This document shows positions 1,029 through 64,000 of a DNA stretch of 64,000 nt, piece after piece. The stretch is from Dictyostelium discoideum (Eukaryota). The notes under the pieces are model-generated. The model was given only the letters and a program-made list of their open reading frames with translations, made no database searches and was not told the DNA's origin. The position numbers and the translations under genes are program-made. The DNA lies in contig CM000150.2 of the NCBI GenBank assembly GCA_000004695.1, positions 1,792,001-1,856,000 on the forward strand. Reading direction: 5' to 3'. The number at the start of each line of letters is the position of its first letter. The stretch's first letter is position 1.

Positions 1029-3373
1029 GTCTTATACACACAATATACAAGAAAGGCAACCCCTTACTCATATCAAATCGTCGTCCCATTACACTTCTAA
1101 ACACTGATTACAAGATCCTCTCAAAAGTAATCAATGCACGTCTTCTGAGAATACTTCCTTTCATCATCAACAACAACCAAACTGGTTTCGTACCCCACAG
1201 ATTCATCATAGACAACATCATCAACATCAATGAATTAATCAACTACCTCAAATCTAAAAACCTCCCTGGTATCATCACACTATTTGACTTCTTTAAAGCA
1301 TTTGATTCTATCTCTCACGATAGCATTAAAAGAACATTAATTCATATTGGTATACCAATAAAATTAATAAATTTAATCCACAAGCTATTATCTGACTCAC
1401 AAGCAAAAATTTCAATTAATGGTAAAACGACCAGAAAATTCGATATTAAAAGAGGTGTAAAACAAGGTGACCCAATCTCAGCCACTTTATTTGTAATTGT
1501 AATTGAAATATTAGCAAGAACAATAAATGCAGACAATTCAATAATTGGATTACCAATTTCACCCAATCCACAAATTAAAATTAAATTTACCCAATTTGCA
1601 GACGACTCTACAACATACAACATCAACTACGAACAACAACAACAATCAATCAAACATTTCGATAATTTCTGCGCTTCAACATCATCATCATTAAATTTTG
1701 ACAAAAGTGCAATAATAGAAATCAACCCCCACAAAATCACTGATAAACACATAATAAACAACATTCCACAATCAAAAAGAATACCAATAACCAAAAAAGA
1801 TCAATCAGAAAGAGTTCTTGGCTATTTCTTTAATCATAATGGTTTACATAGGAAATTACCAGAAACAATGAAAACACTGATTAAATCATTAGTGCTATGG
1901 AAAACTAGTGGCACAACATTAAAAACAAAAACAACCATCATAAACACCTACTCACTATCACCAATAACATATTTATCATACCTTGAAGAATTTACAAAAG
2001 ATGAAGAAATTCAAATTAATAAATTAATCTCATGGTTTATGAATTCTCCCGCAAATTCTGAATCACCAACTCTCGATACCAATTCCATTGAAAAAAACAC
2101 ATCAACCATCCATTCACGTGCAAAAATACCTTTGATGTGTTATGATAGATCATTAAAACCATTAAAAGAAGGTGGTTGGGGTATGTGGAATATACAATTA
2201 CGACAAGTTGCTCAAAAGATTTGGATATACAACAGATTTTTACAAATGCATAAATCTGCAAACAATTCAATATACATGATAAGTTGGATGGATCAAATCA
2301 TCAACAAATCAATCTCTTCTCCATACCTTATAAAAATCAAAAAAGAATGGGAAAACTATGCAACTCAAATTGGACATCTAAAAGATAAAGTTCAAATCCT
2401 ACAACCAATATTAACAAAAAACCAACCCTCTCAAACATTAAACACAAATAATATTTCACTACCACCAACACTCAAAGAAATCTACTCGACAATACTAAAC
2501 AATCACCAATGCAAATCAAAAGACTATATTGGCAAGAAATATTCAGATCTACTTCTTACTTCGCACCAACAATCAATACAACTATTATGGAAATACACAT
2601 ACGACCAACTTTTTGTCAAAATTCAAAAATTAAAAGATCCAAAAGGCCGAGATACAATGCAAAGATTCCATGCTAGATGTCTTCCGATTAATCATCTACA
2701 CAACAAAGTTTGCCCCATTTGCAACAATGAAATGAATAATGATCCCTATGGTCATTTGTTCTTCAATTGTCAGCACACAATCAACTTCATTAACCACGAC
2801 AAATTAAAATATTTTATATATAAAAATTGCAATGGAAACAAAAACTGGTCACTAACAAAAAACCAAACAACAAAATTATACACACTCATTTATAAACCAC
2901 AAACAAACAACAAAGCATTTAAACCAGATCCAACTATCAATATTAATTTTCATTTTGCAGAAAACGCACAATATAAAAAATACAGGTTCAACTGGAATTA
3001 TATAAACACAAATCTTGATCTAGTCAGAACACATGCATATTGGAACATAATCTCATTAGTTATTCAACAAATATGGATATGGTTATGCAAATCATTATTT
3101 GACATCAATATAACTCAATCAATTGATAATTGGAACAACCAAATAAACAACACAACACTAGATTATGATATATTAAAATCAAAATGGCACAAGCTAATAA
3201 GATTGGAATATTCAAGAACTTTATCAAACTTTAACCAATACTCAATTAAAAACAACCTCACAAAAACTCAAAAAGAAACCCAATGGTCCGAAACCATCAA
3301 AAAATTTAAAAAAGAATGGAGCATAAACACAAATGAACCAATTCCAACAATTACACCACCAATTAATTATTAA
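1029..3373 (+). CDS. Retrotransposon ORF2, covering the reverse-transcriptase domain to the C-terminal zinc-finger-like domain. It is 5'-truncated by the gap, and the frame is continuous from 1082 to the stop at 3371-3373.
   Basis: The frame is open from the gap edge. The ORF track lists only 1868..3373 because that is the first ATG. The conserved RT blocks are listed under the mobile element. Confidence 0.8.
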
Positions 3374-9908: not shown

Positions 9909-12900
9909 TTATTTATTATTATTTCCAGTATTTTGTAATAATTTCTTTAAAGATGCAATTTCTAAATCTTTCTTTTTTATAATTGAAATTAAAGTTTGTT
10001 GATCCAATTTTTCATAATCGAAATGGTCAATATCACGTTCAGAAGCTTCAATTAATATTGGTAATAGTTCTGATAATATTTGATCGCTAGTTGGTCTATT
10101 ATCAGGATTTATATCAATCATTCTAAGTATTAAATTTGATTCTTCAGGGTGTTTACTTGTGAACCAACTTGGTAAAATTCCATTCTTTAAATTCTTAATA
10201 TGAGTAGTTCTTTCAAATTGAGTTTCAAATCCACCTACAATCATTTCAAATAATATAATTCCACAACTATAAATATCAGTTTTATTTGTATACCATGTAT
10301 TAGTATATCCTCCACCTCCAAAAACACCTTTATTTGATAATTGTTCTGGTGATGCATAAGTTAGAGTACCAACACCAACTGTATTCACTGAAATTGAATT
10401 ATAAAACATGAATGGTGTTGTAGATGTTGTTGCTGTTGCTGTTGTTGTTGAAGAAGAAGAAGAAATCGTGCAACCAAGTGATGAATTTAAATGAGTTGTT
10501 GCTGCTGTTGATGATAATGATGAAGATAATGGTTTAGATGGTGAAACTGAAATTGTTGGTGTAATTGTTGATGTTGGTGGTGTTGAAATTGGTATAGTAT
10601 TTGCAGAAGAAGTTGGAGTTGTATCAATTGGAGTAGTGGAGGGTGTATTATTAGTTAATGGTGTTGTTGAAGGTGTGGTAGCAGTAATATCTTTTACCAA
10701 ACCGAAATCACCAATTTTAATGACACCACTTGAAAGGAATAAATTTGCAGGTTTTAAATCCCTATGAATCATACCCATAGAATGAATATAATTAACACCT
10801 GTAATAATTTGTTTAAATAATGATAAAATTGTAGTTTTACTATTATTTTTAAAATCAGGATTCTCTAATAAATCTCTCAATGTTTTACCTTCACAATATT
10901 GAGTTTGAATATATACTGTATATTTTAATCTTAAATTATTGCTATTACTATTTTTATCATTATTTCGATTATTATTATTATTATTATTATTTCGATTATT
11001 ATTATTATTATTTAAATTATTAATACCAATTAATTGAGAATTTGATAATTGTTTAGTTGATAAAGTTAATCCTTTTGGTTTATTTCCTTCACTACTATCA
11101 CTATCACCTATACTACTACTATTACCACTACCACTACTAGCACCACTACCACTACTTGGATTATATATTTTACCTTTTTTCTTTTTTATAGGTTTAACAA
11201 AAGGAATCATTGATTTACTAATTGTTAATGCCTTAATCATCTCTTTAATATTTTCATTTTCAAAATCAATATTATCACTATCACTTTCACTTTCTTCACT
11301 TTCATCACTCTCACTTTCTTCACTCTCACTTTCTTCGCTCTCACTTTCACTATAAATTTCATCACTATCACTTTCTTCAATTTCACTCTCATCACTTTCA
11401 CTATTATTTGTAAGATTGAACTTTTCAAAATATTCACTTATGGAATATTCTTGAGAATTAGTATTGGTTACACTATCATTCAATGAAAATGATATTGATA
11501 AATTTCTTTTGAATGGATATTTTTTATCATTCCTCTTCTTCTTTAAATTACTACTAATACTATTATTACTACAACTACTCTTTTTAAAACCTCCTTTGAA
11601 TTTAATAGAATCTGAAAAATTACTATTACTAACATCATCTTCATCTTCATCTTCATCTTCATCTTCATCTTGATCTTCAAAAAAACTATCATCACTTTCA
11701 TCATTATCATTATTACCAGTACCTAAACTACCCTCAACTGAACTAAAACTTGAAGATCTTGGTTTATTATTTTTTGGATCCAATTCTAACCAAGCATTAT
11801 GATATCTTAAAATATTAATATGATCTAATTTTGCTAATGCTACAACTTCACGTACAACTTTTTCAATTTTACTCGATGCATTTGTTGGTGATTGATTATT
11901 TGATATTGAGAAATTCACTTTCTTTATTGCATATTTATGTCCATCCAATACATACTCTGATAAATAAACTGACCCAAATCCACCTGATCCTAATTTTGAT
12001 ATCTCTTTAAACTCTCTTTGATATCTTAAAATATTACCAAATGTCGAACTTGGTAATGCTTTTTGTTGTTGTTGTTGCTGTTGTTGCTGTTGTTGTAGAA
12101 ATTGGTATTGTTGTAATTGTTGATATTGATAAAAATTTGAAAAAAATGATGAATCAATTAAAAAACTACCTTCTTTTTTTATTGGTTTTTGATAAATTGC
12201 TAAAGGATTATTATTATTATCACTACCACCACCAAATACTTTATTATTTTCACCCTATAAATAAAAAAATACACATTAATCATATTGTTAATATATATAT
12301 ATATATATATATTCACTAAAAATCATACATACAAGTTTTAAATTTGTAACATTTAATGCATTTTGAAATAATTCTCTATAATAATCCAAGTAAAGTGATT
12401 TAAATTGTGATGACCTTAATATATTCGATGGTACACCCATTAATTCAATATCAACTACACTCTTCATAAATGTTGATAATTTCTTTTGATCTAATTGATT
12501 CGATTGAAAAAAGTTTTCTGAAATTAACATTTTTAATAATATCTTTTTTTGTTTAAATAAGTCATCTAATGATTTTTTGAAAAGTATTAGTAAAAATATA
12601 TATATATATATATTTATTATTGTTAATAATAATAATTGTTATCAAACATACCACAAGATTCAACTAATTCCATAGCATCAATTGTATCAATAAAACTTTT
12701 CGATTTTGATAAAACTATATTACCATGATTTTTTAATTTTTTATTGGTTTTATTAATACTACCATTATTATTATTATTATTATCAGAATCAACTTCAGTT
12801 GGAGTTTTCACCTCTTCTTCTTCTTCTTCTTCTTCACCTGAATTTGAGTTTATAACTAGAATTCTTGATTTTGATCTTGTGAGTTCTAATTTTGATGTAT

Positions 12901-42586: not shown

Positions 42587-46131
<3,545 letters not shown>

Positions 46132-49479: not shown

Positions 49480-52500
<3,021 letters not shown>

Positions 52501-52689: not shown

Positions 52690-53108
52690 ATGAGTTTATG
52701 TAATTTAGCAAAAATTAGAAGTGTTGCAATTAAAGCAGTTGAAAAGGCTTGTATTGCATGTTTAGATATACAAAAGCAATTAATTTCAGAAGATACAATT
52801 AATAAAAAAGATCAATCACCAGTAACAGTTGGTGATTATACAGTTCAAGCATTAGTTATCAATGAATTACTTAAAGGATTAGATGAAGAATACCCAATCA
52901 TTGCAGAAGAGGATTCAAAAACTTTATCATCACAAAAAGATGTAGAATCAAAAGTATTATCATTTTTCAATCGTTATTCAAATGAAAGTTTTGTAGAATC
53001 TCAATTAAGTTCTTTATTAGATAAAGGTAATAAAAAAAAGGATTTAAATTCCTCAAATAGATGGTGGACTTTAGATCCAATTGATGGTACTTTGGGGTAA
53101 ATATTTAA

Positions 53109-53194
<86 letters not shown>

Positions 53195-53832
53195 ATTACT
53201 AATAAAATCAATTTTTATTTTATTATTAATATAAAAATAGATTTTTAAGAAAAGATCAATATGCAGTTGCTTTAGCATTAATGGAAGATAATAAACCAAT
53301 TCTAGGTATTTTAGGTTGTCCAAATTTACCAGTATCAAAGGGATCAACTGAAAAAGGTTGTATTTTTGTTGGTTTAAAAAATAAGGGTTCATTTATGATT
53401 AAATTATCAAATTTAGATCAAGAGGAACCAATTAAGGTTTCAAATCAATCCGATCCAACCAAAGCAATTTTCACAGAAAGTTTTGTTTCAAGAGGATTTG
53501 GTCATGAATTAAATCAAAAGATTTCAAATTCAATGGGTGTAACAGCAGAACCTTTAAAAATTGACAGTCAATGTAAATATGCAATGGTTGCTCGTGGTGA
53601 TAGTGATTGTTATTTAAGATTAACTCAATTAGATTATAAAGAATGTATTTGGGATCATGCTGCTGGTCATATAATCGTAGAAGAAGCTGGTGGTATTGTA
53701 ACTGATTTCAAAAAACAACAATTAGATTACTCAAAAGGTTTCAAATTAGAAAATAATGTTGGAATTGTTTGTTCAAATAAATTATTAAATGATTCATTAT
53801 TTGATTCAATTAAAAAATCAATTCAATTTTAA
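52690..53832 (+). CDS. 3'(2'),5'-bisphosphate nucleotidase (PAP phosphatase) of the inositol-monophosphatase superfamily, HAL2/SAL1-like, 332 aa. Exon 1 is 52690..53096, the intron is 53097..53240, and exon 2 is 53241..53832.
   Basis: WWTLDPIDGTLG|FLRKDQYAVALALMEDNKPILGILGCPNL matches HAL2 (DPIDGTKGFLRG.QYAVCLAL…GCPNL). WDHAAGHIIVEEAGGIVTD is the C-terminal signature. The donor is GTAAAT at phase 2 and the total of 999 nt is divisible by 3. Confidence 0.85.
53109..53200. repeat. An (ATT)n microsatellite of about 30 units inside the nucleotidase intron.
   Basis: Read directly from the sequence. Confidence 0.95.
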
Positions 53833-54132: not shown

Positions 54133-54560
54133 TTATGTTTTAATAGTATACTCTGGTATGGTATCAGGATCCATAAGCTTGTTATCCTTTATGCAATCAA
54201 AGAACCATTCCAATGTAACTAATTTTTGAATTCTGTCACTAAGTTCGTGTTGTGGTCTTATCAAACACAAACAATAGTGAGCTCCTTCTCGTCCTCTCAT
54301 TTCTTTATAGTTTTTAAATGAACCACCAGCACTTTCAATATCTGCTTTGGTATCTTTCCAAAAATCAACAGCTTTAATTGAGTGACCTATAGTATCGTTA
54401 ATGAATTGATTATTTTCAAGTTCTTCTATATCTTTCAATGAAAGATCTTCAAAACTTGGGAATATTGAAAAATTCTTTTTTGTAAAAATCTTGGAAAAAC
54501 TCATTGGTAACTATTTTTTTAAAAATAAAAAAAGAATATATGTTAGTAAAAGGAAGAAAG

Positions 54561-54611
<51 letters not shown>

Positions 54612-57036
54612 ACCAATTGACCTTTATAAACAGAATTTTCAGAAATAATAGTGAATTTCTTTTTATAATTGATTCGACTTAATTCACGTGGGAAAAATGG
54701 ATGATCATCAGATACAACATAACATCCTCTAAAACTAAAGTTTAAACTATCCACAATAAATCCATTATTTGCTATTATAAAATCTCTTAAAACAGCTGTG
54801 AAGGAATAATAAAGATGGTTAGTATGGTGGTAATAAAATAAAATAGTTTTCTAAAAGAAATTTTAAAACTTACATTTTCCTTTAATAGGGTCAGATAAAA
54901 CAAATGCTTTTCCATGTATTGATGGGATAGATAGCGCTCGTGAATTATCAACCATCAATGGTGGAATTGATTGAATGTTAGATTGAGTCAATGGCTCTGA
55001 AATTGATTCACAATCAGATTCAATCATTGGCCCTGAAATTGATTCACAATCGGATTCAATCATTGATTCAGAGTCATTCAATAAATCTGAAGGTGATTGA
55101 ATCAATAGTTTTGGAATTGATTGAATCAAAAAGGTTTTTGTTGGAGTTGGAGTTTTAGAACCAACAGGAGTTGATTGAACCAATAATTTTGGAGTTGATT
55201 GAGCCAAAACTTTTAATGATAGTTTTGTTAAAGGTGTTTTTGGTACTGATTGTCTTCGTCGAACTGATTGAACCAATGGTATTGGATCTACTTTTAAAGT
55301 TGGTGATTTTGGTAAAGTTTTTGGTGTTGTTGTTGTTGTTTTTGTTGTTGTTGTTGATTGTCTAGGTGATTGAACCAATTGATTTTTTGGTGGCGGTGAT
55401 GATGGTGTTGTCGTTGTTGTTGTTGTTTTTGTTGTTGTTGATTTTCGGGGTGATAGGAACATTGACTTTTGAGTTGGTTGGGCCAATGGTTTTGATTGAG
55501 TTTTGTAATTTGTTTGTTTAACTGGTGGTGATGTATCGATATCTGGTTTTGAATGTGTTGGTGTTGGTGGTGGTGGTTTATATGGTGATGATAATGTAGT
55601 TGTGGTGGTGGTTGTTGTTGTTGTTGTTAACGATTTTTTGGTTGTTTTAGTTGTTTTTGTAATTGTTTTTGTTTGCATTTTTGGTGATATAGGAGTTGGC
55701 AGTGATAGAGGCGTTTTAGTGACACGAGGTGATTGATTTTCAATTGGTGAATCTGTCATATATGATCTTCTCGTTCTCATTGGTGTTGGTTTAGAAATTA
55801 CAGATGGTGATGATTTTACAGGGGTAATATTAATTTTCTTTGGTGATTTTAAAATACTCTTTCTAGCTTCTTTTTCTTCTCTTTCTTTTTCTATTTCTAT
55901 TTCTCTCTGTCTTTGTTTTTCTCTTTCTATTTCTCTTTCTTTTTCTTTTTCTTTTTCTCTTTCTCTTTCTCTTTCTCTTTCTAATTCTCTTTGTCTTTCT
56001 CTTTCTTTTTCTATTTCTCTCTGTATTTCTCTCTGTATTTCTCTTTCTCTTTCTATTTCCCTTTCTCTTTGTATTTCTTTTTCTCTTTGTATTTCTTTTT
56101 CTCTTTGTATTTCTCTTTGTACTTCTCTTTGTATTTCTTTTTGTATTTCTCTTTCAATTTGTTTTTCTCTTTCAATTTGTTTTTCTCTTTCAATTTGTTC
56201 CTCCCTTTCTCTTTCAATTTCTGCTTCTATTTCCTTTTCTCTTTTTCTTTTTCTTTCTCTTTCTATCAGTATTTCTTTCTCTTTTTCTTTTTCTATCTTT
56301 TTCTTTGTCTCTGCATCATTATCAATATCATCATCAATATCATCATCTATCTCTAATTCGTCATCCTCGAGGATAGGTTCAGAGAGAATCTTCCCGCTTT
56401 TATCTGTAAATTTTCTATCTTTAAAAATATATGTTTGACTGTACAAATTAATATGATCCATATGAACCAATTTAGTTTCTTTTTTTAAGAGTGCTCCATT
56501 TAAATAAACTAAAGCTTCTCCCGAATTATTTATCGTTAAATTTTTTGATTCATAATTAATCACTGCCATAGTTTTTCTATTTAAATGTCGAAATTGAATA
56601 TTATTATCCTTTTTACTAAAAAATTTTAAAAAAGAGTATAGGGATTAGTAAACTATTGTATTTAAAATAAAAAAAATGAACAAAATAAATAAACAAAAAA
56701 TCTTATGATTTACTTACCCCCCAATCGTGAAATTTTTAGTTTGAATTTTATAATCAATACGATTAAGTGGATCATAAATAAATCCAAAATTATTTCTAAA
56801 AATTATGTGATAATAAATTTAAAGTTAGTATATATATTTTAGAGGAGAAAAAAAAAAAAAAAAAAAAAGAACTTACACTATATTTTTCTTTGGTTGGTGA
56901 GCATTATCATTTTCATGAAATGATGATTGTCTTTCTGTTTCACTTTCAAATAGTTTTCTTTTACGTCCACAACTATTGCCATTATTATTATTATTATTAT
57001 TATTTACATCACTTGTTTTTATACCATCATCATCAC

Positions 57037-57101
<65 letters not shown>

Positions 57102-57237
57102 GTTGTATTATTATTTACAGATTCGAGTTCAGTTTGTGTGCTTGTGTCTTGATAAAAGTTTGGTTTTGATATATTATTGTTGTTATTATTATTATTATTA
57201 TTATTATTGTTGCTGTTGTTGTTGTTATTAATATTAC

Positions 57238-57268
<31 letters not shown>

Positions 57269-57681
57269 ATTATTGTTATTGTTATTGTTATTGTAAGAAT
57301 TAGTAGTATGTACAGGAGATTTAAAGGCATAAAGCTTTGAAGGTGATGATAAAGGAGTAGTGAATAAACTATTTGAACTATAATGACCACTTGAAGGCGT
57401 CGATGGGGTTGATATAGCTTTACCAATTATAAAATGTATATGTGAATCAGTTTGTGAAATAGAAATATTATTATTTGTATCTAAATGAGTAATATTAATA
57501 TCTCTATATTTTATACTCCTATTTGATTCTTGGCTACTAATAATATCTTGACTACTATATTTTGTTTGACTATTAATGTAATTATTATGATTATTATGAT
57601 TATTACTACTATTATTATGATTATTACTACTATTATTATTGATATGAATACTATTATTATTATTACTATTACTATTATTTA

Positions 57682-57765
<84 letters not shown>

Positions 57766-58294
57766 TACTATTAGAATTTAATTGACTATTATTTATATCC
57801 TGACTATTAGTTATTTCCTGACTATTACTTATATCTTGACTATTACTTATATCTTGACTATTGGATATCTCTTGGCTACTATATATTTCTTGACTATCAC
57901 TTAAATCTTGGCTACTTAAGCCAAGTGATTTTATAAATTCTTTATAGTAGATACTATTTGTATAAATATTTTGACTTGGAATACTGCCCACAGAGTTTTG
58001 AGATGAGTTGATATTATTATTATTATTATTATTGGTGTTGGTGTTATTATTATTATTATTATTATTAATATTATTGATATTATTATTACTGTTATTAATA
58101 TTATTACTTATATTATTGATATTTTTATTTTTAATATGGTTATTGCTATTATTATTATTATCGTTAAGTGCACCACCATTGGGAACTATAGAATCAGGTG
58201 AATCATATGACGAAAGAGACACGGGTGATATATTTGGTGATGGTGAGGTGTAATTTGGCGAGATTAACGGTGAAATATACGAAGAAGGCATCAT
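54133..58294 (-). CDS. FHA-domain protein of 1257 aa in 5 exons: 56877..58294 (N/S-rich with SQDISNSQ repeats), 56718..56795 and 54874..56615 (FHA domain, a long REIQREKEIQ charged-repeat region, then an S/T/P-rich region), 54614..54771, and 54133..54510 (an unrecognised ~190-aa C-terminal domain).
   Basis: The FHA-like segment is NFGFIYDPLNRIDYKIQTKNFTIGG|KKDNNIQFRHLNRKTMAVINYESKNLTINNSGEALVYLNGALLKKETKLVHMDHINLYSQTYIF. All donors are GTAAGT/GTATGT. Exon 4 needed the acceptor TTATAATAG|CA, because CACAG|CTG gives a stop. The phases 2, 2, 1, 0 all agree and the total of 3774 nt is divisible by 3. Confidence 0.65.
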
Positions 58295-59312: not shown

Positions 59313-59816
59313 TTATAGATCACTTTCCTCTTCATAGTGTATTTCAGTATTATGATCATAATCTTCACTGTTACTTTCAAAAGATTCATCAATACCTTTA
59401 ATAAAACACTTTGGAGAATGATTGCACACTCCATTAATTTTAGGAGAATGACAATTATCTCTTTTTGTTAATCTATCTTCACAATATAGATGATTTGGAT
59501 TTAAACATTTTCTATTGTTGCAAAGGAAAGAAATAACATATCCATGACCATGACCATCGGAGTCAATACAACTTGGATCATTTTCACAGGAATTTGCAGC
59601 CTTTGGATAAAGAAAGAGTTTTTTATCTTGATTGGTGTTGTTGTACCAAACGAGGTTGTGACCTTTAACATATTCAAGGAAAACATTACCACAAACTCTA
59701 ACTTCAACATTAACACCATCATTCTTGAAAATTTTCTTTTGATTTAAATTCATTTCATCTCTATTCATTAACCAACAATCTTTCTTAGATTTCTTTTCAA
59801 CAACTTCCATCAACAT
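59313..59816 (-). CDS. Protein of 167 aa carrying a His-Cys-box-like (I-PpoI-type, His-Me finger) nuclease/DNA-binding motif.
   Basis: SFLCNNRKCLNPNHLYCEDRLTKRDNCHSP…GVCNHSPKC aligns with I-PpoI [31 protein letters not shown]…GCVHAVVC, conserving S-x-L-C-x-N-x-x-C-x-N-P-x-H-L…E…N-x-x-R-x-x-C and the Cys/His zinc ligands. The residue at the I-PpoI catalytic His position (LCHN) is Asn here (LCNN). This recognition is from memory and needs an HMM check. Confidence 0.5.
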   Translation of the reverse strand: MLMEVVEKKSKKDCWLMNRDEMNLNQKKIFKNDGVNVEVRVCGNVFLEYVKGHNLVWYNNTNQDKKLFLYPKAANSCENDPSCIDSDGHGHGYVISFLCNNRKCLNPNHLYCEDRLTKRDNCHSPKINGVCNHSPKCFIKGIDESFESNSEDYDHNTEIHYEEESDL

Positions 59817-61005: not shown

Positions 61006-64000
61006 TTAATGAGATGAATTATAATGTTTATCAATTTTATTTGCCAATTCTTTACAAGTGTTTGTAGCATCACCTAATAACATTGAAGTATTTGGTTTAT
61101 AAAATACTGGATTTTGAATATCGGCATAACCAGCATTTGTTAATGAACGTTTCATAACGATACAATGTTTTGCTTTCCAAACTTCAATAACTGGCATACC
61201 AGCGATAATTGAATTTGGATCTTCAACTGATGCACTATTGACGGTATCATTTGCACCAATTACGATTGCTAAATCTATATCTTTCATTTCTGGATTAATT
61301 TCTTCCATTTCGAAAACAATGTCATATGGAACCTTTGCTTCACTTAAGCAAATATTCAAGTGACCTGGTAATCTACCTGCTACTGGATGAATACCAAATT
61401 TAACATTGTGACCTTTTTCAATTAAAGTTTTAACCATCTCTGCAACTGGATATTGACTTTTACTAACAACCATACCATAACCTGGTACAATGAGAATATT
61501 TTTAGAGTTGGTAATCATTTCACTTGCTTGATCAACATTGATTTCAGTGTGAGTACCTGTGATTTTCATTGCTTCACCTTTTCCCATACTTGATGTACCA
61601 ACACCACCTAAAATAACACTCATAAGATTTCTATTCATAGCTTTACACATGATATATGATAAGATTGCACCACTTGAACCAACAATTGCACCAACAATAT
61701 TCAATAGGGATGAATCTAACATGAAACCTTCAGCAACCAATGCCCAACCTGAATAACTATTTAATACAGTTACAACAACTGGCATATCTGGACCATTAAT
61801 TGCAGCGGTTAATAAATGACCTTGAATGAATGAAAGAATAGTGGTAGCACCTAAACATGCTAAACCTAATGTTGGATTGGTTGTTGATAAGAAAGTTGCA
61901 AAAGTAGCAACATTTGCTAATGCTAAACCAGTGTTCACTAAATGACGATTTGGAACATGATATGGTTTTGATGGTACCTTCCATTTACCAATATGACCTT
62001 GTAATTTTGCATAGGCAACAACTGAACCTGTGAATGTAATACCACCAATTAAAGCACCCAAATAAACTGAACTCTTATGAATTGTATCTAAAGCTGCAAA
62101 ATTACTATAATCAGCCAATAAAGAGGCACCTGATGCCAATACAGCTGCCATACCTACAAAACTGTGGAATGCTGCAGTGAGTTGTGGAAGTTCAGTAAAG
62201 TTTACTCTCTTTGAAAACAAATAACCAATACCACCACCAACTAAACCAACACCAGCCATTTGAGCGAGTAGAGCACTTGATACACCTAAAGAAGCAACAG
62301 TTGCACCCAAACCAATTGCAATACCACCCATACCTAAAATATTACCAAGTCTTGATGATTTTGCACTTGATAAACCACTAATTGAGAGAATACACATAAT
62401 TGAAGATGCTAAGTATGCCAATTGAGTTAGAGCTGGACCACCACTACCAACCGTTGATAAATAAGCAGCCAAGAAACCTAATGATGGTATACCGTATAGA
62501 TATTCATAGGTTGGTTTATCAGTTGGTAATTTAAACATATCCAACATTCTCTTGGTGATTGTAAAACCACCAGCAATATTAATTGATGCCATAAATACTG
62601 CAGCACTTGCTAATAGTTGACCACCAGTCGAAGGTATATAACCACCACCCATTAAATGTAAACCTGCAACTGCTACTATACCACTAATTGCATTTGTAAT
62701 TGACATTAATGGACTATGTAATGCTGGTGTAACACCCCAAACTACTTTATAACCAATTAATGCAGCCAATGAGAATGTTGTTAAATTAACCATAAAATCT
62801 GCTGGTAATCCCATTGACATTGCAACTGCACCACACATTGCTGCTGTTGCACCCAATGCTGATTTCAATGTTTTATTAAATAATGAAGTTTCTTCTTTAA
62901 CAAGATTACTCTCAACCTTTTCTTTATTACTAACAGGTGTTGATGGTGATGGTGGAGTCACTGGAACTGGTTTCTTTGGGGCTGGCCAAATTAAAGTACC
63001 ATTATAAGTTACTGTTGAACCTCTATGAACTTCATCAGTGAAATCTAATTTGAAACCATCTTTATCATTACCTAAAGATAAGAGAAACTTGGTGATATTA
63101 TTACTATAGAGTGTACTTGATTGAGTTGCCATTTTTGATGGTAAATCAGTGAAACCAATAATTGAAACACCATTATAATTATAAGCTTCGCCTGGTTTTG
63201 TTAATTCACAATTACCACCAGTTTCAGCAGCTAAATCTACAATAACACTACCTGGTTTCATTTGATCAACCATTTGTTTGGTAATTAATTTTGGAGCAGG
63301 TACACCTGGAATTAAAGCGGTTGTAATTACGATATCCACTTCTTTACATTGACGTTCAAACAATGCCATTTCAGCCTCAATGTATTCCTTTGACATGTGT
63401 TTTGCATAGCCACCTGAACCTTCTCCACTCTCTTTGATTTTCACTTCTAAAAATTCACCACCCAATGATTCAACTTGTTCTTTGGTAACAGATCTAGTAT
63501 CGAATGCTCTAACGATAGCACCAATATTTTTAGCGGTACCAATAGCAGATAAACCAGCAACACCAGCACCAATAACCAATACTTTAGCAGGCTGAACTCT
63601 ACCAGCGGCTGTAATGGCTCCACCAAAGAATCTACCAAAATAGTTGGATGCCTCCATCACTGCTTTATAACCTGCAATATTTGCCATTGATGATAAACCA
63701 TCAAAAACCTGTGCTCTACTAATTCTTGGTATACAATCAACTGCAATGGCATTAGCTTTCTTTTGTGATAGTAACTTTAAAGTTTCTGCATTTTGTGCTG
63801 GTGATAAAAAGCTAATTACTGTAGCACCTTCTTTCATCATTTCAACTTCATGTTTACCCAAGTTTGTATTAAATTGTGGACCTCTAACCTTTAGTAATAT
63901 ATCGGTTTTCTTGAATAAATTAGCTGCAGTTGTAATTTTTGCACCGGCTTCAATATATTTAGCATCAGAGAATTTTGCACCTTTACCAGCTCCTTCTTCA
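61006..64000 (-). CDS. Mitochondrial NAD(P) transhydrogenase (proton-translocating, fused PntA/PntB type: dI alanine-dehydrogenase-like domain, dII membrane domain, dIII NADP(H) domain). It is 5'-partial, because the frame is open to the window end.
   Basis: [70 protein letters not shown] and [15 protein letters not shown] match E. coli PntA nearly residue for residue. The C-terminal dIII segment reads [13 protein letters not shown]…[12 protein letters not shown], the PntB signature. The stop is at 61006. Confidence 0.9.

Follow-up and report, generated by a model that had tools for sequence, protein, structure and literature searches.

Dictyostelium is a model for double-strand-break repair (DNA-PKcs, PARPs, gamma-H2AX), and to our knowledge no gamma-H2AX reader has been characterised in this organism. 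In other systems gamma-H2A(X) is read by the BRCT5-6 pair of PTIP/Brc1/Rtt107. In MDC1 the phosphate is bound by T1898 at the end of beta-1 and K1936 in alpha-2, while Arg1932/1933 bind the +2/+3 carboxylate. The phosphothreonine-binding consensus of FHA domains consists of Gly-Arg, Ser-x-x-His, and Asn-Gly. What is described as conserved across the MDC1 family is the combination of an FHA domain with a C-terminal tandem BRCT, and EAL70982 from D. discoideum and EFA74881 from P. pallidum are apparent MDC1/Mdb1 homologues with such a layout (PMC4013092). Phleomycin induces gamma-H2AX foci in Dictyostelium (PMC8758696), and a reader is therefore expected. A protein with the layout of MDC1 is the obvious candidate.

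The window analysed here is a stretch of 64,000 nucleotides from D. discoideum (contig CM000150.2, positions 1,792,001 to 1,856,000 of the forward strand). On its minus strand, at 54133-58294, it holds a gene which was reconstructed from open reading frames and splice signals. The gene is real and, as a preliminary description had proposed, has five exons; the frame is open throughout. All four introns are of the GT-AG type, 78-103 nt long and 77-90% A+T, and the canonical GTAAGT, ACTAAC, and AG signals are seen at every junction. The 1257-aa model put forward earlier could be reproduced and translates without internal stops. When three ORFs of the window were looked up for an annotated locus, nothing was on record. 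The features of the revised model are as follows, a slash marking a splice junction.

54133..58294, minus strand: whole coding region, revised model; ATG at 58294, TAA at 54133-54135; 1265 aa
56877..58294, minus strand: exon 1 (1418 nt), N/S-rich and disordered, residues 1-473; 3' end AATATAGT/GTAAGT
57779..57916, minus strand: SQ cluster, residues 127-172 (46 aa), with seven SQ[DE][ILV] in a hexapeptide array; from motif positions and repeat
56948..56968, minus strand: basic GRKRKLF, residues 443-449; read from the sequence
56796..56876, minus strand: intron 1 (81 nt, 85% A+T); ACTAAC 29 nt before the AG
56718..56795, minus strand: exon 2 (78 nt), opening strands of the FHA-like domain, ends ...FTIGG
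56616..56717, minus strand: intron 2 (102 nt); ACTAAT 29 nt before the AG
56408..56794, minus strand: FHA-like domain, residues 474-568, interrupted by intron 2; Pfam FHA match at 496-556
54874..56615, minus strand: exon 3 (1742 nt), phase 1 end, ...GGAAAAT/GTAAGT
56315..56368, minus strand: acidic patch EDDELEIDDDIDDDIDND, residues 582-599; by composition
55856..56311, minus strand: E/R/K/I-rich repeat, residues 601-752 (~150 aa); by composition, with a 12/18-nt tandem repeat at 55869-56312
54932..55855, minus strand: S/T/P-rich region, residues 753-1060 (~300 aa); by composition and repeats
54481..54919, minus strand: BRCT1, residues ~1065-1150, interrupted by introns 3 and 4; GKAFVLSD...VLRDFIIANNGFIV...CYVVSDD...FTIIS
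54796..54873, minus strand: intron 3, revised (78 nt), GTAAGT...ACTAAC...CACAG; acceptor position kept in D. firmibasis
54614..54795, minus strand: exon 4, revised (182 nt); 54614-54771 in the earlier version
54511..54613, minus strand: intron 4 (103 nt, 90% A+T); ACTAAC 32 nt before the AG
54133..54510, minus strand: exon 5 (378 nt with the stop codon), remainder of BRCT1, linker, and BRCT2
54385..54480, minus strand: inter-BRCT linker, residues ~1151-1182, between the Pfam stretches; boundaries inferred
54145..54384, minus strand: BRCT2, residues ~1183-1262, with the VTLEWFFDC helix; best BRCT_2 stretch at 1195-1256

Exon 3 encodes the remaining part of the FHA-like domain, the acidic patch, the E/R/K repeat, the S/T/P region, and strand beta-1 of BRCT1. 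Intron 4 carries a poly-T run of about 50 nt on the coding strand.

The two versions of the gene differ in the acceptor of exon 4. It had been claimed that CACAG/CTG leads to an immediate stop and that only TTATAATAG/CAAAT restores the frame. Both statements were mistaken. Donor 3 is in phase 1, the codons across the CACAG junction are T/CT GTT TTA AGA GAT, giving S-V-L-R-D-F-I-I-A, and both acceptors are in frame; a stop appears after CACAG only when the exon is misread in phase 0. The acceptors are separated by 24 nt and give a CDS of 3798 nt (1265 aa) with CACAG versus 3774 nt (1257 aa) with the downstream site, and the divisibility by 3 noted for the shorter CDS is equally true of the longer one. 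The additional 24 nt encode VLRDFIIA, which is helix alpha-1 of the first BRCT.

The distance from the ACTAAC branch motif to CACAG is 23 nt with no AG between, in agreement with the 29-32 nt of the other three introns, whereas the acceptor chosen earlier lies 47 nt downstream of the motif and is reached only by skipping three AGs. D. firmibasis has kept both the first-AG acceptor and the coding of LRDFII, and has no AG at the position of the downstream site. With CACAG the Pfam family BRCT_2 matches in two stretches with 27.4 bits, compared to 18.4 bits in one stretch with the other acceptor. Branch-point spacing, D. firmibasis, helix alpha-1, and Pfam thus favour the CACAG acceptor, with exon 4 at 54614-54795 and a protein of 1265 aa. 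That the earlier model should be right instead, with the acceptor ATAATAG/CAAAT, 1257 aa, and a C-terminal domain of novel fold, is very improbable. This acceptor is likewise in frame and AT-rich; however, its use would remove helix alpha-1 of BRCT1, and the domain it leaves as novel is a BRCT.

The C-terminal sequence quoted in the preliminary description is present in the translation, and the domain, which could not be assigned to any family at the time, is by its match to Pfam BRCT_2 assignable. On this match the last ~200 aa is a divergent tandem BRCT phosphoprotein-binding module. The score of the CACAG model against PF16589 (BRCT_2) is borderline, 27.4 bits where the gathering score is 27.3 (E 4.2e-6), and a longer construct reaches 26.8 bits, E ranging over 4-6e-6 between constructs. 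The two stretches, residues 1069-1110 and 1195-1256, are in tandem with a short linker between them. The stretch in BRCT2 covers profile positions 23-83 of 86, and this repeat displays the hallmarks ...IESAGGSF..., with Gly-Gly after alpha-1, and ...VTLEWFFDC..., with Trp in alpha-3. The stretch in BRCT1 is weak (~9-10 bits) and is found only with the CACAG acceptor; BRCT1 contains ...IIANNGFIV... but lacks the Trp. Queried on its own, BRCT1 matches BRCT_2 and LIG3_BRCT. When BRCT1 was doubled to pass the HMMER filters, positions 7-48 of 86 in BRCT_2 matched residues 1069-1110 across the exon 3/4 junction; the E-value of such a query is meaningless alone, because doubled shuffles reach similar E on random families, and only the identity of the family is informative. 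Ten BRCT controls (the earlier-acceptor version, the reversed sequence, and eight shuffles) gave no BRCT match. A single-sequence structure model of exon 5 alone had a pLDDT of 51, too low to be of use.

The position of intron 3 within BRCT1 also bears on whether this is one gene or two. An FHA gene could end at the TAA at 54863-54865 and be followed by a separate gene, for instance from the ATG at 54504, encoding a lone BRCT, and the ORF 54133-54504 does open with an ATG and span the linker and BRCT2. However, the Pfam stretch 1069-1110 straddles the exon 3/4 junction, with 11 residues on the exon 3 side and 31 on the exon 4 side, and is lost when this junction is altered. Since GTAAGT, ACTAAC, and AG stand at each junction and the frame is continuous over all exons, two genes are scarcely credible.

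The FHA-like domain proposed earlier is indeed split between exons 2 and 3, but its assignment to the family stands less firmly. Three of four constructs matched PF00498 over profile positions 2-66 of 67 with 14.5-15.4 bits (E 0.026-0.05), which is under the gathering score of 20.7, and in those three it was the sole family matched. Two longer constructs gave no FHA match in Pfam, and shuffles of the FHA region with the same composition matched random families at similar E-values in two of seven cases. A PDB sequence search with the FHA region matched no FHA chain, and a single-sequence structure model of the part encoded by exon 3 was all-beta but, with a pLDDT of 43, likewise too poor to use. 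By its Pfam match the FHA assignment has weak but specific support. When the domain is mapped by eye onto the consensus, GR corresponds to GG (498-499) and SxxH to NRKT, while NG is kept (YLNG); on this reading the domain apparently lacks the canonical Arg, Ser, and His. Being apparently without the phosphothreonine-binding Arg and Ser, the domain would more likely serve in self-association or in a phospho-independent contact.

It could be argued that the BRCT and FHA matches are both due to chance, and that the C-terminal domain is a lineage-specific orphan, carried by a gene that evolves fast and may be dispensable. The Pfam scores are all at or below threshold, shuffled controls often match random families at E 1e-3 to 1e-2, and the sole homologue found is a decayed fragment in D. 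firmibasis. Still, among 24,736 families the matches land on precisely the two predicted ones, the two BRCT stretches are independent and in tandem with correct spacing, the hallmark motifs GxxFxLS...GG and LxWxxxC are visible by eye, and BRCT or FHA was matched by none of 17 control sequences, making chance an improbable explanation.

Protein searches for homologues, using the C-terminus, the FHA region, or a profile built from the C-terminus and the D. firmibasis fragment, returned only a mis-annotated D. firmibasis protein of 69 aa. The same single match, and nothing else, came from an HMMER scan of exon 5 against 1.84 billion representatives, a metagenome scan gave no relative, and no intact orthologue was found in the protein, HMMER, and metagenome searches. 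This lack of matches is not evidence of an orphan gene, because the D. discoideum protein itself was never returned. The D. firmibasis relative is a frame-shifted and deleted, i.e., decayed, fragment, and as the only relative it argues against strong conservation. Synteny of this fragment was considered and rejected, its Inositol_P neighbour not being the Inositol_P gene of the window.

The regions outside the two predicted domains are mostly as first described. The N-terminal exon is N/S-rich (38% Asn, 17% Ser) and carries the (SQDISN)n repeat, an 18-nt unit present 7.4 times in tandem at 57782-57914 and encoding SQ[DE]I[ST]N. There are eight SQ[DE][ILV] motifs in all, the eighth at residue 248. 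Going by the S-Q-[DE] consensus, the SQ cluster provides candidate phospho-acceptor sites for ATM/ATR/DNA-PK, and GRKRKLF is a possible nuclear localisation signal. The charged repeat is about 150 aa (601-752) and not about 300 aa as had been stated, the latter being the length of the S/T/P region; from its composition it is probably a charged alpha-helical spacer or a coiled coil. The S/T/P region is, as reported, dense in SP/TP, having 24 S/T-P sites of which several are full CDK consensus. Within it, L[VIA]QS.. occurs six times (912-1008) and MIESDCESIS[GE]P twice (1017-1040).

The predicted order of SQ cluster, FHA-like domain, charged helix, S/T-P region, and tandem BRCT is the arrangement of MDC1/Mdb1, the FHA part being weak. 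The best explanation, which we put at about even odds, is that its 1265-aa product acts as a nuclear adaptor protein and shares the plan of this DNA-damage mediator. Gene structure, the BRCT assignment, the weak FHA assignment, and motif content are shown by the analysis, whereas nuclear location, ligands, kinases, and pathway are what we infer. The tandem BRCT would dock the protein on a phosphoserine mark, the leading candidate being histone H2AX at DNA breaks, phosphorylated at its C-terminus. For the SQ array the kinase would be ATM, ATR, or DNA-PK, for the S/T-P sites one of the CDK type, and once phosphorylated both would offer docking points to additional repair or checkpoint factors. 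If confirmed, this would mean that a mediator of the MDC1 type was already present in the ancestor shared by Amoebozoa and Opisthokonta.

The BRCTs of MDC1 show no pairwise or small-profile similarity to those found here. In phmmer and profile searches against all PDB chains, including MDC1, Mdb1, PTIP, and Brc1, no BRCT was matched at E<=10; S. pombe Mdb1 (PDB 7p0j), a non-metazoan member of the MDC1 family defined by its C-terminal tandem BRCT, was thus unmatched as well. Comparisons to MDC1+PTIP used a two-sequence profile and hence have low power: hhalign returned a probability of 16%, with only the generic LxWxxxC helix aligned, while the real sequence scored 6.3 bits with the HMM and ranked third among 2001 sequences including shuffles. 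The phosphate/carboxylate-binding motif RTxK of MDC1 (RRTVK) is unrecognisable in BRCT1, where PRELSR is seen by eye. Equivalents of T1898/K1936/R1933 are not clearly present, save for the Ser in ...FVLSD; this residue, Ser1073 in GKAFVLSD, fits T1898 by pattern, the MAFFT alignments being unstable. The canonical W-containing helix is found in BRCT2 here and in BRCT1 in MDC1.

Alternatively, the FHA-like and tandem BRCT layout may be correct but serve another phospho-signalling pathway, for example CDK-driven cell-cycle, mitotic, or chromatin organisation, or the binding of a non-histone phosphoprotein. In that event the protein would not be an MDC1 orthologue, nor would it be equivalent to MDC1 in function. 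The missing specific similarity to the MDC1/Mdb1/PTIP BRCTs, the unrecognisable RTxK motif, and the dense S/T-P sites all point this way. EAL70982 may moreover be a different and more canonical gene; the present protein has no BLAST- or phmmer-level similarity to MDC1. However, the SQ[DE] array is a classic substrate pattern of ATM/ATR/DNA-PK, Pfam BRCT_2 matches the second BRCT of the tandem in MDC1 and PTIP and thus the same repeat position as here, and we know of no other family that joins an FHA domain to a C-terminal tandem BRCT. Another pathway is therefore somewhat unlikely, though by no means far-fetched.

Quite improbable, by comparison, is an amoebozoan-specific and rapidly evolving mediator of the gamma-H2AX type that assembles with itself through its N-terminal array of SQ[DE]I hexapeptides, a series of internal mimics of the SQE-hydrophobic tail of H2AX. 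Once ATM or DNA-PK had phosphorylated these mimics, the tandem BRCT of the same molecule (in cis) or of another copy (in trans) would bind them, resulting in damage-triggered auto-inhibition or polymerisation. The FHA would in that case be reduced to a phospho-independent module, and the gene would be dispensable enough to decay in the sister species D. firmibasis.

Ki-67, NIPP1, and SLMAP, which the preliminary description put forward for comparison, share an FHA domain and long disordered phosphorylated regions with the present protein, but none of them has a BRCT. Identity with a D. discoideum Ki-67 candidate was rejected, since the FHA of that protein is apparently found in the first 100 residues, only those having been kept for every homologue analysed (bioRxiv 10.64898/2026.06.18.733134). 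NBS1/Nibrin is also a DNA-damage protein with an FHA and a tandem BRCT, but there all three domains form one N-terminal block, while here they lie about 500 residues apart with the BRCTs C-terminal. The PTIP/Brc1/Rtt107 BRCT5-6 pair has in common with our protein a tandem BRCT whose second repeat matches Pfam BRCT_2; these proteins contain six BRCTs and no FHA, and unlike here the first repeat matches RTT107_BRCT_5.

A close parallel in layout is found in human MDC1 and Drosophila MU2, which share the FHA on the N-terminal side, a phospho-acceptor cluster, a repetitive middle rich in Pro/Ser/Thr, and a tandem BRCT at the extreme C-terminus. Here, unlike in MDC1, 470 residues precede the FHA, which apparently lacks Arg, Ser, and His. 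The present protein has SQ[DE]I as acceptor motif instead of TQxF or SDT, and an extra E/R/K helix of ~150 aa. A D. discoideum protein of FHA-tandem-BRCT architecture is already in the literature, mentioned in passing in 2014, and may or may not be the product of the present gene (PMC4013092). The practical gains are the assignment of the C-terminal domain previously called unknown and the correction of the gene model, this being otherwise ordinary annotation. EAL70982 and EFA74881 reportedly have an N-terminal FHA as well, and thus the same layout as the protein described here (PMC4013092).

The five-exon gene at 54133-58294 is real, with exon 4 corrected. It lies on the minus strand, and its CDS was rebuilt from the splice junctions with two alternative acceptors for exon 4.

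Exons of the FHA-BRCT gene (window positions)
56877-58294, minus strand, exon 1
56718-56795, minus strand, exon 2
54874-56615, minus strand, exon 3
54614-54795 (acceptor CACAG|CTG) or 54614-54771 (ATAATAG|CAAAT, the acceptor of the preliminary description), minus strand, exon 4
54133-54510, minus strand, exon 5

All four introns start with GTAAGT or GTATGT, end with AG, have an A+T content of 77-90% and contain an ACTAA[CT] branch-point-like motif. Intron 4 also holds an unbroken homopolymer of about 50 nt (54557-54606, poly-T on the coding strand). With ATAATAG|CAAAT the rebuilt CDS is 3774 nt, encoding 1257 aa, and is divisible by 3 as originally stated.

CACAG|CTG had been discarded as giving an immediate stop. 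Exon 3 ends in phase 1 (...GGA AAA T|GTAAGT), and the CACAG reading, T|CT GTT TTA AGA GAT TTT ATA ATA GCA (S-V-L-R-D-F-I-I-A), stays open; the TAA is seen only in phase 0. Nor is ATAATAG|CAAAT alone in restoring the frame, since the acceptors differ by 24 nt and both preserve it, giving 1265 aa with CACAG and 1257 aa with the other. Four independent observations favor CACAG. The distance from the branch A to the acceptor is 29-32 nt in introns 1, 2, and 4, without an intervening AG; CACAG lies 23 nt from its branch A with no AG between, while ATAATAG lies at 47 nt and requires that three AGs are skipped. In a D. firmibasis copy of the region CCATACTAAC is retained; the first AG comes next, and then coding sequence for AFLRDFIIS. 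At the position of ATAATAG this copy has ATAATTTC, and therefore no AG. The eight residues added by CACAG form the helix between GKAFVLSD and NNGFIV, which to our knowledge is common to every BRCT domain at that place. Finally, Pfam BRCT_2 scores 27.4 bits in two stretches with the CACAG model, vs. 18.4 bits in one stretch with the other.

The C-terminal domain, earlier thought not to be assignable to any family, is a divergent tandem BRCT (residues 1061-1265). In Pfam, the C-terminal 228 aa matched BRCT_2 (PF16589) and no other family (E 6.4e-6, 26.8 bits, two stretches), the best stretch being the last ~60 residues, including VTLEWFFDC. The 205-aa trimmed C-terminus scored barely over the gathering score (27.4 vs. 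27.3 bits), and the second repeat, BRCT2, 18.7 bits by itself. Human MDC1 and PTIP (sequences checked against PDB chains 2azm and 3sqd) are also matched by BRCT_2 in their second repeats. A single copy of the first repeat, BRCT1, fell below the filters of HMMER and gave no match. When doubled, it matched BRCT_2 (profile positions 7-48, residues 1069-1110) and, weakly, LIG3_BRCT. None of the controls (the doubled version from the 1257-aa model, the reversed sequence, and eight shuffles) matched a BRCT family, but they matched random families at E 1e-3 to 1e-2; therefore only the family identity, not the E-value, is informative for doubled BRCT1. The BRCT1 stretch spans the exon 3/4 junction, which argues that these exons belong to one mRNA.

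The FHA-like domain has weak but specific support from Pfam. Neither the whole protein nor a 149-aa construct gave a Pfam match. Constructs of 95, 87, and 76 aa matched only PF00498 (profile positions 2-66 of 67, E 0.05-0.026) at 14.5-15.4 bits, under the gathering score of 20.7, and two of seven shuffles matched a random family at similar E-values. The support therefore lies in family specificity, not in the score. A by-eye mapping of the match gives Gly-Gly for Gly-Arg and Asn-Arg-Lys-Thr for Ser-x-x-His, with Asn-Gly kept, which suggests that the phosphothreonine site may be degenerate.

Each homologue search found either no relative or a single D. firmibasis "hypothetical protein" of 69 aa, RB653_005878, annotated with an implausible splice on a decayed fragment at 9990-10600 of locus L001 (CM069765.1, GCA_036169595.1). 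L001 contains pieces of the C-terminal region only (55-79% amino-acid identity). It has a 2-nt deletion ahead of donor 3, most of exon 4 and the entire intron 4 are gone, BRCT2 is interrupted by a frameshift and a stop, and the end is divergent. Neither FHA nor charged repeat was found upstream of the fragment. The locus lacks synteny with the window and has retroelement-like sequence nearby. The fragment probably represents the remnant of a pseudogene or a partial duplicate that is now dead. The adjoining L001:13188-14129 is similar to window 1031-2011 (tblastx, 36-56% amino-acid identity, E 4e-67), probably through a common retrotransposon family.

High A+T content and long poly-Asn tracts characterize the window. 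Together with the STAT-like ORF listed below and D. firmibasis as the one source of a retrieved relative, they point to a Dictyostelium species, most likely D. discoideum. The following was observed around the gene.

Other features of the window
42769-46131, minus strand, large ORF with Dictyostelium-specific STAT coiled-coil, STATa Ig, and EF-hand-fold domains
49873-52500, plus strand, long Gln/His/Pro/Asn-rich ORF with extensive poly-His/Gln tracts and a CCCH-type zinc-finger-like motif, CKFVTRCKYGDEKCPFYHP
52690-53832, plus strand, gene of the inositol monophosphatase family with two exons, probably encoding a 3'(2'),5'-bisphosphate nucleotidase
59313-59816, minus strand, 167-aa ORF ~1 kb upstream of the FHA-BRCT gene start, matching PF05551 (zinc-binding loop of His-Me finger homing endonucleases; 27.3 bits, gathering score 27)
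61006-63861, minus strand, fused alpha/beta NAD(P) transhydrogenase gene with PNTB, AlaDh_PNT_C, and 4TM domains

The nucleotidase-like gene and the FHA-BRCT gene are convergent, their stop codons being only ~300 bp apart. The STAT-like ORF, which we take to resemble Dd-STATb (dstB), has an SH2-like motif, GTFVILFSE, with Leu where Arg is normal in STAT SH2 domains.

Motifs and repeats along the protein (residues of the 1265-aa model)
127-172, seven SQ[DE][ILV] motifs in a hexapeptide array, with an eighth at residue 248
443-449, basic motif GRKRKLF, a possible nuclear localization signal
582-599, acidic patch
601-752, E/R/K/I repeat of ~150 aa, previously estimated at ~300 aa
753-1060, S/T/P region, dense in SP/TP as described before (24 S/T-P sites)
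912-1008, six L[VIA]QS motifs
1017-1040 (window 54992-55063, minus strand), MIESDCESIS[GE]P, an exact tandem duplication, acidic, Ser-rich, and CK2-like

MDC1 has an FHA domain and, well separated from it, a tandem BRCT at the C-terminus; the window gene has the same layout with its FHA-like domain. The position and charge of MIESDCESIS[GE]P are reminiscent of the SDT repeats of MDC1, although Cys stands where these have Thr. Searches of the C-terminus against PDB with phmmer and a profile gave no match to MDC1, Mdb1, PTIP, or any BRCT chain. An hhalign comparison with MDC1 and PTIP gave 16% probability on a generic helix only, an MDC1+PTIP HMM scored 6.3 bits, and MAFFT alignments with the MDC1/PTIP BRCTs were unstable. 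These results count against simple orthology. Given the missing matches and unstable alignments, the phosphate/carboxylate residues of MDC1 are not confidently mappable, Ser1073 being the sole residue that fits the set by pattern. D. discoideum EAL70982 and P. pallidum EFA74881 have been described as apparent MDC1/Mdb1 homologues with FHA and C-terminal tandem BRCT (Wei et al., 2014; PMC4013092); EAL70982 may be the window gene itself. Gamma-H2AX foci form in Dictyostelium (PMC8758696), and a protein that reads this mark is therefore to be expected. That the product of the window gene belongs to the MDC1 family proper is unproven, and it is best described as a candidate phospho-scaffold of the MDC1 type.
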